A stretch of 64,000 nucleotides of DNA from NCBI GenBank assembly GCA_934183165.1, contig CAKPRZ010000001.1, positions 54,820 through 118,819 on the forward strand, in the 5' to 3' direction. This document shows positions 24,446 to 49,609 of the stretch, one piece after another (the first letter of the stretch is position 1; each line of letters opens with the position of its first letter). The translations under genes were made by a program, and so were the position numbers. The notes below the pieces were generated by a model. It ran no database searches. It was not told the origin of the DNA and saw only the letters and a list, made by a program, of their open reading frames with translations. The DNA comes from an uncultured Bacilli bacterium. Its GTDB lineage: Bacteria > Bacillota_I > Bacilli_A > RF39 > UBA660.

Positions 24446-25420
24446 ATGGAAAAAAATATCGACAAAATCTATTATGATATGGAAAACTTTGAAAATAATG
24501 CAGCTATTGATACATTAAACAGAATGTATTTTGATAAAATAATTAATCCATATAAAAGCAGTGAAAAAATAATTGATATGCATACCCATACTAATTACTC
24601 AGATGGCGATTTATCACCTCAAGAATTAATAAGATTGGCAATAGACAAAAGAGTTGGAACTCTAGCTATAACTGATCATGATACTATTGAAGGAGTTAAA
24701 AAAATTAATAGAAATGAAAAGTTAATTGTAGATAGTGGAATAGAAATTATTAACGGTATTGAATTATCTACAAAAACCAATAAAGGGGTTATGCATATCT
24801 TAGGTTATGATATTGATCTAAATAGCCAAGAATTAAATAGAAAAATGATAGAATTGAAAGATAACAGCATTGATTCAGTGTTATCAATAATGGAACAAAT
24901 AAAAAGAGATTATGGAATTAGGTTTAGCTATGAAGATATAAAAGAATTAGTTAATGCTAACCATAATTTAGGTCGTCCAGATTTAGCTAAGCTTTGTGTT
25001 AAATATGGATATGCAGCAACATCACAAGAAGCATTTTCCAAATATTTAATAGAAGCTTATAACAAAACAAGGCAAATTAGTAAATATTTACAGTATCAAG
25101 AATGTTTAGAACTAATAAATAATAGTGGTGGTATCCCAGTCCTAGCCCATCCAAAATCATTAGAATTATCAGAAAAAGAATTTTTAATTACACTAAAAGA
25201 TATGATTGATTGTGGATTAAAAGGTATTGAGGTATATCACTCAAGTCATTCACAAGAAGAAATGTCTTATTATTTAGAAATAGCAAATAGATACAACCTA
25301 TTAATAAGTGGTGGTAGCGATTTTCATGGTAAAACAATTAAACCTAATATTGACCTAGGTACAGGAAAAGACAATAATATCAAAATTAAAAAATTATCAT
25401 TGCTTGATGCATTACATTAA
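24446..25420 (+). CDS. PHP-domain (polymerase/histidinol-phosphatase-like) metal-dependent phosphoesterase.
   Basis: IDMHTHTNYSDGDLSPQELIRLA ... ITDHDT ... HPKS ... GGSDFHG. Confidence 0.8.
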   Translation: MEKNIDKIYYDMENFENNAAIDTLNRMYFDKIINPYKSSEKIIDMHTHTNYSDGDLSPQELIRLAIDKRVGTLAITDHDTIEGVKKINRNEKLIVDSGIEIINGIELSTKTNKGVMHILGYDIDLNSQELNRKMIELKDNSIDSVLSIMEQIKRDYGIRFSYEDIKELVNANHNLGRPDLAKLCVKYGYAATSQEAFSKYLIEAYNKTRQISKYLQYQECLELINNSGGIPVLAHPKSLELSEKEFLITLKDMIDCGLKGIEVYHSSHSQEEMSYYLEIANRYNLLISGGSDFHGKTIKPNIDLGTGKDNNIKIKKLSLLDALH

Positions 25421-25438
25421 TAATATTTAAGAAAACAA

Positions 25439-25469
25439 AAACAATCTAAATCATAATCTTAGATTGTTT
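25439..25469. terminator. Bidirectional terminator (aaacaatctaa-N9-ttagattgttt) between the PHP gene and the Cys-rich peptide gene.
   Basis: Perfect 11-bp inverted repeat flanked by A- and T-runs. Confidence 0.5.
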
Positions 25470-25504
25470 TTTAGTGGAAAATATTTTGAGTTTACTAAAT
25501 ACTA

Positions 25505-25687
25505 TTATTTACAACATTCACATTTTGATTTGTTATCTTGACAACCGCATGTACAATCATCGTCGCAAGTGCAGTTTCCTTCTTCACATCCACAAGTACA
25601 TTTTACATCTTCACAGGTACATTCCATACCTTCTTGGCATCCGCATGTACAAGTATCCATGCAAGTATTCTTTTCTTCTTCTTTCAT
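25505..25687 (-). CDS. Cys-rich metallothionein-like peptide (60 aa, ~17 Cys) with three tandem (T/K/D)CTCGC(Q/E)(E/D) repeats.
   Basis: MKEEEKNTCMDTCTCGCQEGMECTCEDVKCTCGCEEGNCTCDDDCTCGCQDNKSKCECCK. SD AGGAGGG lies 6 nt upstream of the internal ATG at 25687. It follows the CsoR-like gene by 10 nt. Confidence 0.6.
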   Translation of the reverse strand: MKEEEKNTCMDTCTCGCQEGMECTCEDVKCTCGCEEGNCTCDDDCTCGCQDNKSKCECCK

Positions 25688-25697
25688 TATATCCCTC

Positions 25698-25982
25698 CTA
25701 ATCATTAAATCTTTTAAATAAACTTGTTAATTCATCAATGACTTCTTCATTTTTTATATCATCTGAAATACACCTATAAATATGGTTTTCAAACATAAGA
25801 TTAGCTAAACTCTTTAAAGATTTTTCACAAGCAACTATTTGAATTAATATATCATTACAATATCCATCTTCTTCTATCATTTTTTTAATTCCAGAAAGTT
25901 GCCCACTAATTCTATTAATCCTACTTAATAACTGTCTTTTTTCTTCATCATTTCTTTCAGTTTTTTTACAACCTTCACTCAT
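25698..25982 (-). CDS. csoR: CsoR/RcnR-family metal-sensing transcriptional repressor.
   Basis: RINRISGQLSGIKKMIEEDGYCNDILIQIVACEKSLKSLANLMFENHIYRCIS carries the CsoR signature (R..G..Q...M......C.D.L.Q..A) with Cys and His ligand positions. The start may be 25997 or 25982. Confidence 0.75.
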   Translation of the reverse strand: MSEGCKKTERNDEEKRQLLSRINRISGQLSGIKKMIEEDGYCNDILIQIVACEKSLKSLANLMFENHIYRCISDDIKNEEVIDELTSLFKRFND

Positions 25983-26052
25983 ATTTTCCACCACCAATCC
26001 AATTATATTTTAAAACATATTAAAAAGTAAATGAGGGGGTATATTTATTAAA

Positions 26053-26892
26053 TCATTTTAAATCCAAAGCATTTTTAGGACACTTTCTAATACAATTACA
26101 ACATAATATACATTCAGTACCATTTTTCCTTTTTCTTGAATCAGTTAACATATCAACATTCATTGGACAACTCCTTATACATTTTTTACAATTAATACAT
26201 TTATCATGATTACATTTAATGCGTAAATAAGAAAAATAACTAGCTGGTTTTAGAAAAATAGTTATAGGACAAATATATTTACAAAAAGCCCTATTATCTT
26301 TATAAATATATGCCAAGGCAATTCCTAAAACATAATATACGATATTTCCAATTATAAATGACCAAAACATTATATTATCTAAATTATCTACTTTAAATAT
26401 AAATAGTGAGATAACAAAAGTTAATGATAATAAGAATACTATATATCTAATCCACCCTAACTTTTTTCTATTAGATTTTGGTATTTTATATGGAAGTAAA
26501 TCTAGTATCATTCCAGTCCAACAAGCATACCCACACCATCCTCTACCAAAAAATAAAGGTCCAGCTATTTTAGCTACAAAATAATGTATAGTTGCCGCTT
26601 CAAACACCCCTAAAAATAGATAATACCAAAATCCTTCAATCTGCATATTTTCTCTACATATAACTCCCAAATATATAAGCATATATAATCCAACTGCAAA
26701 TTGAACAAAGCTTCTTGCATATTTTACTTTATGTGATACTAAATAAAGTCCAACTGAAACACATATTCCTATATAGTTAAAATTTAATAAATAGAAAATC
26801 TTTTTAGTTGATATGAATAACGATATTGCAACAACCTCAAATATTAACATCATTATTAAAACAATTTTATTTTCTCTAAACCATTTAAACAT
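26053..26892 (-). CDS. NapH/MauN/CcoG-superfamily membrane polyferredoxin (4 TM, two CX3CP loops, 2x[4Fe-4S] C-terminal domain).
   Basis: FFGRGWCGYACWTG and FCKYICPIT loop motifs. C-terminal CINCKKCIRSCP ... CILCCNCIRKCP ferredoxin motifs. Confidence 0.7.
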   Translation of the reverse strand: MFKWFRENKIVLIMMLIFEVVAISLFISTKKIFYLLNFNYIGICVSVGLYLVSHKVKYARSFVQFAVGLYMLIYLGVICRENMQIEGFWYYLFLGVFEAATIHYFVAKIAGPLFFGRGWCGYACWTGMILDLLPYKIPKSNRKKLGWIRYIVFLLSLTFVISLFIFKVDNLDNIMFWSFIIGNIVYYVLGIALAYIYKDNRAFCKYICPITIFLKPASYFSYLRIKCNHDKCINCKKCIRSCPMNVDMLTDSRKRKNGTECILCCNCIRKCPKNALDLK

Positions 26893-41347: not shown

Positions 41348-41713
41348 CTACCTATTATTATTATTATTGTTATTATTGTTGTTGTTATTTGATGATCCAC
41401 CACTAAATGAACTGCCACTATAACTACCACCAGATGATTCATAATGTGGAAGGATTCTAAATTCTTTGTTACTCATAATAACTCCATCTACACTACTATC
41501 AGTACACCTTGAATTTATAATAACAGCATTTGATGTATCCCTATTTACAACAAGAGAAAGATTTGAAGCTCCTATTACTTGTCCTGTTGGATTATCAACT
41601 AGAAACTTATATATTTGTTCTAAATCAGCCATAGATAATTCATAGTATTTAGTCAAATCAATACATCTTTTTTTTCTTATTAACTCTTCATATGTTTCGG
41701 GATCTTTATTCAT
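41348..41713 (-). CDS. Small protein (121 aa) with a conserved N-domain, a Gly/Ser/aromatic-rich tail and a poly-Asn C-terminus. Paralog of 47470..47868.
   Basis: TYEELIRKKRCIDLTKYYE... N-domain. Tail SSGGSYSGSSFSGGSSNNNNNNNNNNNNNR. Confidence 0.6.
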   Translation of the reverse strand: MNKDPETYEELIRKKRCIDLTKYYELSMADLEQIYKFLVDNPTGQVIGASNLSLVVNRDTSNAVIINSRCTDSSVDGVIMSNKEFRILPHYESSGGSYSGSSFSGGSSNNNNNNNNNNNNR

Positions 41714-47469: not shown

Positions 47470-47868
47470 TTATCTATTATTATTGTTATTAGATGATCCG
47501 CCACTAAAAGAACTACCGCCAAAAAAACTACCACCAAACGATCCACCATAAAATGATGATCCACCTGAATAGGATGATCCTGAATAAGCCTTTGGTACAT
47601 AATGAGGAATAATTCTAAATTCAGTATTACTCACAATAACACCATCAATTTTTGAATCTTTTTTTCTAGCCATAATAACCGACTTAACATCATTATCAAT
47701 GATAAGTGATAGTTTAAGAAAATAACCTACAATTACTCCATTAACATTATTAGCTAGAAAATTATAAACTTCTTTCAAATCGTTATCATTAATTTCATAA
47801 TATTTAGTTAAATCAAAGCATCTTTTATTTCTAATAATTTCTGCATATGTTTGAGCATCATCTTTCAT
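47470..47868 (-). CDS. Small protein (132 aa) with a conserved N-domain, a Gly/Ser/Tyr/Phe repeat tail and poly-Asn. Immediately downstream of, and overlapping, the rSAM gene.
   Basis: TYAEIIRNKRCFDLTKYYE... N-domain. Tail AYSGSSYSGGSSFYGGSFGGSFFGGSSFSGGSSNNNNNR. The start overlaps the rSAM stop by 11 nt. Confidence 0.6.
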   Translation of the reverse strand: MKDDAQTYAEIIRNKRCFDLTKYYEINDNDLKEVYNFLANNVNGVIVGYFLKLSLIIDNDVKSVIMARKKDSKIDGVIVSNTEFRIIPHYVPKAYSGSSYSGGSSFYGGSFGGSFFGGSSFSGGSSNNNNNR

Positions 47869-49609
47869 TTTTTCCCTCCAAATTTAAATAATAAAATTCA
47901 ATATTTTGAAATGGTAAATTTATAGCTTGAATATGATAATAAGCATTATTTTTTTGTTTTAGGTAATGATAATCCCTTAAAGCTGATGTCGTAAAGAAAA
48001 TATTATTAGAATTATCGATAGAATATTGACTATGGTACTCTTTAATTAAATTAGTTATATCATATTCATAGTAATATTCATTATTTGTATTAACACTATC
48101 TAAAACTCCTTTGTAAATTTGATGAGTTACAACATGTCGCTGTTTTGTTCTTTCTTCATCACCATAAGTAACTAAATTCCCACTAAGAATCATAATGTAT
48201 AAAGAATTATTTTCAGGATAATCACATTCTTCTTTAATTAAATTCTTTTTCATACAAATAACAATCTTACTTTGAGGCGTTATGTATATAATTTCTCTTG
48301 ATTTCTTTATTATTTGAGAAGAAAGCGGATATTTGATATCATCAACCTTTAATATAAAAGAATTATCATCATATATATATTTAAGTCTAGGATCACTATC
48401 AATAATGTCTTCTAATAAGGGATATGGACTATTAGTATCTTTTTTTATATATTTAGTAGCGTCTCCTATTCTCATTTTGGTTGCATATTGATATGTGAAT
48501 TCATTAAATTTATCTTCTAAATAGTTTCTATCTTTATACATTTGTTTTTGTAAAAGACAAGTATAACTTTTGTTTTGATTATATGTATTTTTTACAAATG
48601 GGCATCCTGTTTTGCATAAATATAAATAACTACAGTTAGCGCAATCCTCATTAAATGGTAGTTTATTATGATTGATAAAAATCTTCTTATAAGCTTCTTT
48701 TAATATATCATCAACCGTATTTGTATAAATATTTCCATAGTAATAATCAGGATTTTTTTGTCCTCTTACACAAGAATAAATATCTCCATTTCTTTCTAGT
48801 AAAAAGAATTTTTCACCACAATTGTCACAATTAGAGCAATAATCCGGTCCAAATTCATCAAACCATGCACCATTAACTCCACTATCTAAATCAGTCCCAT
48901 CAAATTCTTGATGCATTTTTATGTAGAAATCGACTTGTTCTTCTTCTGCTAAATGATGTAATAATCCATTTGAATTATAATCAAAACCTATCATAAAGTT
49001 AAAATCATTCATATCTAAACATGTATTTTTATTTAAAAATTTTATATCTTCAATAATCTCATCTATGTGTGAATAATGTTCTTTGAATATGGTAGATGAA
49101 ACTTTCTTCTTGTTTGGAATATTTTCTAATAGCTTTATATTATCTAAGATTCTTTCCAATGTCTTAGCTCCACCTTTAGTAACTCTGTATTCATTATGAA
49201 GCGATAAAGGTAAATCAAGACTTCCCGATATTGAAACATTAAATTCTTTAATAGTATCAATATGTTTTTCTATATCAAATAAATTTGTCTTTATATGTGG
49301 ATTACCGATTTTAAAGCCACCTTCATTTATAACTTGTTGATTTTCTTTATAATAATCACTTATAAATTTTATAACGTCATGAAAATCATCTTTACTTAAT
49401 GTTGTAACTTCTCCTCCATGAAGTGAAATATTAAATGGTATAACATTATTCTCTTTAAATTTTGAAATAGCATATTCTAATGTATCTAATGGTTTATATT
49501 TAGTTTTTAATTCTTTTGTATTATCCTCTAAATAGCAATATTTACATCCCATATTACATGCCATTGTTGGAACATACAATAAATGAATATATTTATAATT
49601 TTTTTCCAT
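47858..49609 (-). CDS. Radical SAM / SPASM-domain enzyme with a ~230-aa C-terminal extension (583 aa).
   Basis: CNMGCKYC (Cx3Cx2C) at aa 18-25. SPASM-type clusters CSNCDNCG ... C...CANCSYLYLCKTGCP...C. Confidence 0.85.
   Translation of the reverse strand: MEKNYKYIHLLYVPTMACNMGCKYCYLEDNTKELKTKYKPLDTLEYAISKFKENNVIPFNISLHGGEVTTLSKDDFHDVIKFISDYYKENQQVINEGGFKIGNPHIKTNLFDIEKHIDTIKEFNVSISGSLDLPLSLHNEYRVTKGGAKTLERILDNIKLLENIPNKKKVSSTIFKEHYSHIDEIIEDIKFLNKNTCLDMNDFNFMIGFDYNSNGLLHHLAEEEQVDFYIKMHQEFDGTDLDSGVNGAWFDEFGPDYCSNCDNCGEKFFLLERNGDIYSCVRGQKNPDYYYGNIYTNTVDDILKEAYKKIFINHNKLPFNEDCANCSYLYLCKTGCPFVKNTYNQNKSYTCLLQKQMYKDRNYLEDKFNEFTYQYATKMRIGDATKYIKKDTNSPYPLLEDIIDSDPRLKYIYDDNSFILKVDDIKYPLSSQIIKKSREIIYITPQSKIVICMKKNLIKEECDYPENNSLYIMILSGNLVTYGDEERTKQRHVVTHQIYKGVLDSVNTNNEYYYEYDITNLIKEYHSQYSIDNSNNIFFTTSALRDYHYLKQKNNAYYHIQAINLPFQNIEFYYLNLEGKNER

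Follow-up and report, generated by a model that had tools for sequence, protein, structure and literature searches.

What is a peptide of 60 amino acids for, when more than one residue in four is Cys? The question is raised by a gene of an uncultured Bacilli bacterium (GTDB lineage Bacillota_I; Bacilli_A; RF39; UBA660). The gene lies in a 64,000 bp stretch of contig CAKPRZ010000001.1 (assembly GCA_934183165.1, positions 54,820 to 118,819), referred to here as the window. An initial annotation, made from the sequence of the window alone, proposed a metallothionein different from SmtA. It also raised two alternatives: a peptide modified by a radical-SAM enzyme and a gene on the opposite strand. 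We find that the peptide gene is directly preceded by a gene for a CsoR-family repressor, on which the initial annotation did not remark. On balance, we think that the peptide is a copper-derepressed, metallothionein-like sink or buffer for Cu(I), encoded in a CsoR-controlled cassette.

The peptide has the composition of a metallothionein

The initial annotation left the strand unstated; the open reading frame (ORF) is on the minus strand (Table 1). Its translation is MKEEEKNTCMDTCTCGCQEGMECTCEDVKCTCGCEEGNCTCDDDCTCGCQDNKSKCECCK. Both the coordinates and the translation are exactly as first described, with three CTCGC repeats and a Cys content of about 28%. Of the 60 residues, 17 are Cys (28.3%). 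The peptide has a mass of 6.56 kDa (6564 Da) and a pI of 4.1. It contains 15 acidic and 6 basic residues, and no Phe, Trp, Tyr or His. The CTCGC copies begin at residues 13, 30 and 45. The repeat spacing of ~12 residues that was first reported is roughly right for the distance between motifs (12 and 10 residues), but not from start to start (17 and 15). Along the peptide, the Cys spacing is 3-1-1-5-1-4-1-1-4-1-3-1-1-6-1-0. This corresponds to three diverged C-x-C-x-C-x(4-6)-C-x-C units, together with Cys9 and a terminal CC. The units are just 70-83% identical to each other at the DNA level. Therefore, the internal repeat is old, and is not an artefact of assembly. The composition is unusual for the window; among ORFs of at least 50 aa, only this one contains 12% Cys or more.

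Metallothioneins are recognised operationally by a mass below 10 kDa, a high Cys content in CxC, CxxC or CC motifs and the lack of aromatic residues. At the level of sequence, the peptide shows all of these properties. A metal-thiolate function is likely. Searches with Pfam found no match at E values up to 1, and this includes PF02069 (SmtA/BmtA) and other metallothionein families. Similarly, there was no match in NCBIfam at E up to 1. A sequence search of the PDB returned a Bowman-Birk inhibitor as the sole match, with an E value of 9.7, which is noise.

The peptide gene is under purifying selection

We made 45 pairwise codon comparisons between ten homologous genes. There were 525 substitutions at the first codon position, 394 at the second and 1136 at the third. 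For the same alignment, dN/dS was 0.04-0.37 and synonymous sites were near saturation. The peptide ORF is, with near certainty, a genuine gene under purifying selection in the sense frame.

A rival reading is that this ORF arose by chance, or as a shadow, and that the true gene is the opposite-strand ORF raised at the outset (25474..25701). The antisense frame is indeed open, for 75 aa. However, most homologues have an open antisense frame, since no codon for Cys, Glu, Asp, Gly or Thr is the complement of a stop codon. The openness merely follows from the codon composition of the sense strand; it is a compositional shadow. Conversely, third-position changes dominate the sense frame, and the protein motif is kept across phyla and inside fusion proteins. 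Translation signals also argue for the sense ORF. The strong Shine-Dalgarno sequence AGGAGGG that was first noted is present (Table 1). Equivalent AGGAGG sites lie upstream of homologues, with a strong Shine-Dalgarno sequence at 8 of the 8 homologues for which upstream sequence was read. Hence, the antisense and substitution analyses have already refuted an opposite-strand gene, and its probability is negligible. A longer 66-aa reading from the ATG at 25705 was also rejected. It is not conserved, and homologues begin at the MKEEE/MEEKK position.

The peptide gene follows csoR

The protein encoded directly upstream matches PF02583 over the full model (positions 1-78 of 78; E 9.4e-26). The two genes are on the same strand with a gap of 10 nt, and the peptide Shine-Dalgarno sequence overlaps the csoR stop codon. 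Gene callers also give a length of 94 aa for csoR in contigs of the same species. Among solved structures, the repressor best matches Cu(I)-CsoRs from Geobacillus, Streptomyces lividans and M. tuberculosis (4m1p, 4adz and 2hh7). Its ligand residues, Cys42, His67 and Cys71, line up with those of 2hh7 and 4m1p. The repressor also has second-shell residues Tyr41 and Glu84, and a DNA-binding R-I-N-R motif. In an alignment of nine CsoR sequences, the three ligands and E84 never vary, and eight of the nine have Y41. The repressor thus carries the Cu(I)-type x-Cys-His-Cys ligand fingerprint. Binding of Cu(I) to Cys-His-Cys lowers the DNA affinity of CsoR, as is established for the family (PMC3944814, PMC3902906).

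CsoR-family members also include sensors of persulfide and formaldehyde, and a peptide with 28% Cys is an evident candidate for a sacrificial thiol. The peptide could then buffer thiol redox state, persulfides or electrophiles under a non-metal sensor of the CstR or FrmR type. The fusion of related sequences to GrpE, described below, hints at a stress or redox role. However, CstR lacks the ligand His and FrmR needs Pro2, whereas His67 and Glu84 are invariant here and Tyr41 is nearly so. Furthermore, a sister clade has copZA under the same box (see below). A redox buffer under a non-metal sensor is therefore improbable.

The N-terminus distinguishes CsoR proteins that are linked to the peptide. 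This subfamily has a conserved M-S-x-C-C-K-K sequence. In the window the sequence is MSEGCKK (25967-25982), with a single Cys. The copZA-linked sister clade has M-D-(E/K)-C-H-K instead.

The two genes form a conserved cassette

If csoR and the peptide gene form a unit, the pair should recur in different surroundings. On the contigs that carry the relatives P0009, P0008, P0011 and P0003, a PF02583 gene precedes the peptide gene with a gap of 10-12 nt. The remaining neighbours are wholly different: pyrophosphatase/HD, ABC exporter/VanZ, peptidase C1 and nitroreductase/short-chain dehydrogenase. We also scanned metagenomes with the window CsoR, and found nine loci at least 76% identical. In all nine, a peptide of the family is encoded directly after csoR, and a conserved box lies 59-69 nt upstream. 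Moreover, in a scan of 60 loci (see below), no other family neighbours the peptides as often as PF02583. The unit consists of box and promoter, csoR, peptide gene and terminator; it spans ~650 bp and has two genes. It is very likely that the peptide gene is under CsoR control.

In two peptide lineages, csoR looks damaged at its N-terminus (L001:5690-5745 and L003:4700-4760). In L001/L015 there is a frameshift in an A-run. In L003-L005, from three independent assemblies, codon 10 is an in-frame TGA. The peptide gene is intact in both lineages. The apparent damage may mean constitutive expression of the peptide, or may reflect issues of assembly or recoding.

Further upstream, a gene at 26053-26892 (minus strand) encodes a 279-aa NapH/MauN-like membrane polyferredoxin with Fer4_5 and dicluster domains. 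It ends 70 nt before csoR. We rejected this gene as a third member of the cassette, since the two occur together only in contigs of the same species. Read-through transcription from the NapH-like gene into the cassette is possible.

The neighbourhood bears on whether the peptide is a precursor, of the SCIFF/ranthipeptide type or another ribosomally synthesised and post-translationally modified peptide (RiPP). Being short and Cys-rich is compatible with such a role, and the window does contain a radical-SAM/SPASM gene (47858..49609). As first noted, however, none is adjacent. The neighbours encode CsoR, the NapH-like polyferredoxin and a PHP protein; the radical-SAM/SPASM gene is 22 kb and ~20 genes distant. 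The NCBIfam search described above included the SCIFF models and found no match. Gene tables of ~3-6 kb around the cassette, in five unrelated contexts, contain no radical-SAM (PF04055), protease or exporter gene, and no such genes are among the families common to the immediate neighbours of the other loci. The peptide has no leader/core organisation, and the module is also an in-frame domain of GrpE, HMA and SIMPL proteins. The suggestion of a SCIFF or radical-SAM substrate is thus largely refuted, and a RiPP precursor is highly improbable.

The distant radical-SAM/SPASM protein, of 583 aa (minus strand), has its own small neighbour. The 3' end of its gene is overlapped by a 132-aa ORF with no assigned family (47470-47868, minus), and a 121-aa paralogue of this ORF lies 6 kb away (41348-41713, minus). 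The paralogues have in common ...TYEE(L/I)IR(K/N)KRC(I/F)DLTKYYE.... The radical-SAM gene and paired ORFs may be a separate peptide-maturation system, unlinked to the Cys-rich peptide.

The cassette has a conserved box, a sigma-70-like promoter and a probable terminator

Coordinates for the elements of the cassette are listed in Table 1. In nine csoR upstream regions, the sequence ATATACCCCC-NN-ATTTAC is invariant, and the spacer and synonymous sites have diverged. The exact 18-nt box pattern is found in 12 of the loci that were fetched. In the window, there is only one copy of the box, even with up to 3 mismatches allowed. The promoter was found by a consensus scan, with matches at 10 of 12 positions, and the positions of the hexamers are conserved in alignments of homologous upstream regions. 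Downstream, the terminator hairpin has a folding energy of -12.8 kcal/mol (z = -2.1 versus shuffled sequences). It sits between the cassette and a convergent PHP-domain gene (24446..25420, plus strand). A scan for GC-rich terminators flagged none.

Table 1. Features of the csoR-peptide cassette, with positions in the window.
Feature	Position	Strand	Details
Cys-rich metallothionein-like peptide gene	25505..25687	minus	60 aa; stop TAA 25505..25507 included
Shine-Dalgarno AGGAGGG of the peptide cistron	25693..25699	minus	Overlaps csoR stop TAG 25698..25700; 5 nt before ATG 25687; read from sequence
csoR (CsoR-family metal-sensor repressor)	25698..25982	minus	94 aa from ATG 25982, stop included; PF02583
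Conserved box ATATACCCCCTCATTTAC, candidate CsoR operator	26027..26044	minus	Single C5 tract, AT-rich flanks; overlaps -35 hexamer
Sigma-70-like promoter	26002..26031	minus	-35 TTTACT 26031..26026; 18-nt spacer; -10 TATAAT 26007..26002
Probable bidirectional intrinsic terminator	25437..25471	.	AU-rich 14-bp hairpin and U tract; from RNA fold

Sister operons suggest a link between the cassette and copper

The next clade of CsoR proteins is 52-62% identical, and is found in several contigs labelled as human gut. Here, a short CopZ-like gene mostly takes the place of the peptide gene. Where more downstream sequence was read, the gene after this one encodes an HMA-type N-terminal motif, giving the order csoR-copZ-copA. 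By Pfam, L090, L091 and L094 each encode the HMA chaperone; in L091 and L094, an E1-E2 ATPase with an HMA domain was identified as well. The promoter regions are also alike. The exact box core TATACCCCC is present in four loci of L092-L096, and a one-base variant is present in L090 and L099; L091 is without the box. The box is placed as in the peptide cassettes with respect to the -35, -10 and start codon. The box/-35/-10 architecture is common to L090, L092, L094 and L099.

A second arrangement occurs in an actinobacterial metagenome-assembled genome (MAG) of Propioniciclava (L058:3464-6739). This locus encodes CsoR, a 172-aa fusion protein and an HMA-bearing P1B ATPase. The 172-aa protein comprises two copies of the module and an HMA (CopZ-like) domain. 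Upstream of this csoR, there is a classical palindromic site of the ATACCCCT...AGGGGTA type. Taken together, the position of copZ in the sister operons and the L058 fusion place the peptide where a copper chaperone stands, behind a like sensor and promoter.

The same cassette logic could serve another metal, with a sensor of Zn(II), Cd(II), Ni(II) or Co(II) and a Zn/Cd-type thionein. An N-terminal Cys of the MSxCCKK sequence, with C42, H67 and C71, could make a four-coordinate site, comparable to those involving the N-terminal His of RcnR/InrS. InrS (5fmn) is among the solved relatives of the repressor. In addition, cation-efflux (CDF) genes flank 2 loci of the wider family and, in vitro, CxC-rich thioneins bind Zn and Cd as readily. 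However, the top solved relatives are Cu(I)-CsoRs, and the window CsoR has just one N-terminal Cys. The sister clade with the same box controls an HMA chaperone and an HMA-bearing P1B ATPase, and the L058 fusion contains a CopZ-like domain. Hence, a metal other than copper is unlikely.

The same loci bear on how copper would be handled. Rather than a storage sink, the peptide could be a replacement for CopZ: a high-capacity Cu(I) chaperone, relaying copper to an exporter or to CsoR. It is found at the exact copZ position of the closest related operons, and in L058 the module is fused to the CopZ-like domain upstream of CopA. Conversely, neither the cassette nor the window encodes an exporter, seventeen thiolates far exceed the needs of a chaperone, and no partner gene accompanies the cassette as it moves between genomes. 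We consider a chaperone only slightly less unlikely than a cassette for a different metal.

A model for copper-responsive expression

The steps of the copper sink model would be as follows. At low copper, the apo-CsoR tetramer would occupy the C5 box over the -35 hexamer and repress its own bicistronic operon. When cytosolic Cu(I) rises, the ion would bind Cys42, His67 and Cys71, and the affinity for DNA would fall. The latter effect is that established for the family; for this repressor we present the ligand set alone. Both cistrons would then be transcribed and translated, consistent with the short gap and the overlap of Shine-Dalgarno sequence and stop codon. The 17 thiolates, in three CxCxC-x(4-6)-CxC units, would form Cu(I)-thiolate clusters that buffer the cytoplasmic copper of an anaerobe. 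By analogy with known metallothionein stoichiometries, the capacity may be ~8-12 Cu(I) or 5-6 divalent ions. Copper might also be handed over to an exporter encoded elsewhere, given the position of CopZ in the closest related operons.

A widespread family of Cys-rich modules

A search for CTCGC-repeat peptides had been suggested by the initial annotation, and such a search does find homologues with a conserved Cys core. There were 20 relatives among 5.8 billion proteins, none of them named or with a Pfam domain. Aligned, the relatives share a core, C-T-C-G-C-Q-E-G-x-x-C-T-C, that varies little or not at all. When 1.84 billion cluster representatives were searched with a profile, just 30 clusters matched with E values of 1e-3 or below, so either the family is small or its members are under-called. 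Even so, at least 46 public contigs, Hadza human-gut assemblies among them, encode a peptide identical to that of the window. It is also carried by near-complete MAGs, with contigs of up to 289 kb and 586 kb.

We also searched genomes, one per species, for CTCGCQEG. The motif is carried by 60 species-level loci. All are from uncultured bacteria, mostly in gut or rumen samples. The taxa are Bacilli, Erysipelotrichaceae, 'Tenericutes', Clostridia, gut Alphaproteobacteria, Akkermansia and others.

Several of these loci encode larger proteins. In L026, L034, L035, L042, L053, L062 and L074, a CxCxxxCTCGCQEGKECTC module forms an N-terminal extension of GrpE. The match is at ~4001 in each locus. There are one to several copies of the module, often followed by more Cys/His-rich repeats. 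The families flanking the GrpE-fusion loci include HrcA (7 loci) and Hsp70 (5 loci); the Pfam confirmation of GrpE is for L042 only. The architecture suggests a metal- or redox-sensitive nucleotide-exchange factor.

Other architectures occur at L023:3962-4885, L032:3857-4885, L028:3884-4309 and L050:3707-4222. They are fusions to SIMPL/DUF541 membrane proteins in MAGs of gut Alphaproteobacteria, a 141-aa form with a hydrophobic, signal peptide-like N-terminus, and a module following a class-II aminoacyl-tRNA synthetase anticodon-binding domain. Variants in Akkermansia MAGs (L036, L043, L045, L065, L066 and L073) are 71-95 aa from the nearest ATG, and are possibly longer ORFs. They have CCGKH-rich tails and adjoining sulfatase genes; in four, TACCCCC is found at -376.

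Evidence that weighs against the model

A number of observations weigh against a copper sink controlled by CsoR. The first concerns the peptide. AlphaFold2, run on a 21-sequence alignment of the family, gave no usable model (mean pLDDT 49, pTM 0.27). A low-confidence fold would be expected of an apo-metallothionein, yet this is no positive evidence. The second concerns its partners; there is no copA or copZ within the 64-kb window.

The box is also atypical. Characterised Cu-CsoR operators are type 2 pseudopalindromes (PMC3902906). Type 2 sites have two G/C tracts and TAC-N9-GTA, whereas the box has one C5 tract and TAC-N9-TAC. By the classification of PMC3902906, we infer that the box is a type-1-like candidate operator. 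It could instead be a promoter element. In the copZA-type operons of L090-L099, a perfect palindrome, ATACCATATATGGTAT, lies between the -35 and -10, ~30-60 nt upstream of csoR. This palindrome is absent from the peptide cassettes. Furthermore, the extra N-terminal Cys-Cys-Lys-Lys of the peptide-linked CsoR proteins could be a fourth ligand or a transfer site, and could shift metal specificity.

Finally, the wider family is not tied to the repressor. About 50 of the 60 module loci have no adjacent csoR. For 61 of 61 peptide starts scanned, all csoR-less ones included, there was no C-tract box within 250 nt upstream. Therefore, control by CsoR is not general to the family. Similarly, the fusions to GrpE, SIMPL, an aminoacyl-tRNA synthetase-like C-terminus and other proteins indicate a general Cys-rich module rather than a device for copper only.

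Comparison with known copper and metallothionein systems

The closest functional precedent, by analogy, is MymT/RicR. MymT of M. tuberculosis is a Cu-binding metallothionein for copper tolerance, and is repressed by the CsoR paralogue RicR (PMC3944814). In both cases, a small, cytoplasmic, Cys-rich peptide comes from a gene under repression, predicted for the one in the window, by a Cu(I) sensor of the CsoR family that acts at a promoter motif. The sequences differ. Pairwise BLASTP, with an approximate MymT query, gave an E value of 0.019 over 32 residues with 3 gaps, a match driven by composition. MymT has fewer Cys residues than the peptide, and uses His. The mymT gene is a separate locus, not co-transcribed with that of the repressor, whereas the peptide gene sits behind csoR. 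Lastly, MymT is not known outside pathogenic mycobacteria, and the present family is found in uncultured, mostly gut or rumen bacteria.

The csoR-copZ-copA operons of Firmicutes share the regulator family, the ligand set and the short intercistronic gap. Operons such as those in L092-L096 also share the TATACCCCCTTATTTAC box and the -35/-10 layout. The difference is that one 60-aa peptide replaces the HMA chaperone and the P1B ATPase, leaving no efflux component.

SmtA/BmtA proteins (PF02069) are bacterial, ~56-60 aa long, Cys-rich and metal-buffering, the last being a prediction for the peptide. In SmtA, ~16% of residues are Cys, His residues also act as ligands, the Zn4 fold resembles a zinc finger, and control is by SmtB/ArsR. 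Conversely, the peptide has 28% Cys, no His, no PF02069 match and a CsoR-type regulator. The first proposal, of a metallothionein unlike SmtA, thus gains support from composition, from the lack of a PF02069 match and from the conserved partner, a CsoR of apparent Cu(I) type.

Two further comparisons can be made. As a lead rather than a test, the Cu-metallothionein of Neurospora crassa (fungal family 8; approximate query) aligns in register and ungapped through C-G-C-x5-C-x-C, and also lacks aromatic residues. Cu(I)-thiolate chemistry is a feature of the fungal protein. However, the match is not significant (E 0.18), and the fungal protein is eukaryotic with a single 7-Cys unit, rather than three 5-Cys units. 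The resemblance is almost certainly convergent. Csp proteins are thiolate-lined Cu(I) stores, cytosolic or periplasmic, and sometimes under a copper sensor (PMC11672702); for the peptide, such a role is predicted. They differ as folded four-helix-bundle tetramers, with ~120 aa or more per chain, from a 60-aa peptide without a confident fold. The 2026 'TrxMt' chimera was considered as a relative and rejected; it is SmtA-like and unrelated.

The family has no name in Pfam, NCBIfam or the source annotations, and the literature that we searched, core-motif strings included, makes no relevant mention of it. For CsoR together with metallothioneins, the literature search returned MymT/RicR and reviews only. 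A 2024 review lists MymT, CutC, CopZ and Csp as the only cytoplasmic Cu(I) sinks (PMC11672702). The peptide most likely represents a new bacterial metallothionein-like family, and the cassette a new type of CsoR operon, as judged from the sequences compared here.

Implications

Few families of bacterial metallothionein are known to us; besides SmtA/BmtA and MymT, there are only isolated cases. Copper is added to diets and to feed, and serves hosts as an antimicrobial. A new family would fill a gap in our understanding of how abundant, uncultured gut anaerobes handle copper. In sister lineages, the peptide swaps places with copZ-copA. The self-contained cassette of ~650 bp is also a candidate for a compact, copper-inducible sequestration part, and the peptide is short enough to be synthesised.

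More tentatively, and with slightly less than even confidence, we suggest that CxC(G/S)PDCTCGCQEGKECTC is the signature of an unrecognised prokaryotic metallothionein module. The module would be phylogenetically wide, mostly in animal-gut bacteria, and would have two uses. In the first, it would be a free-standing peptide and the only effector of a portable copper cassette under CsoR control. This would add a third mechanism to efflux by CopA and chaperoning by CopZ. In the second, it would be a plug-in domain for sensing metal or redox state, carried by GrpE, CopZ, SIMPL-family membrane proteins and others. The GrpE fusions raise the separate question of whether metal or redox state controls the chaperone cycle. 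If the signature holds, the plug-in on GrpE could tie the Hsp70 cycle directly to metal stress.

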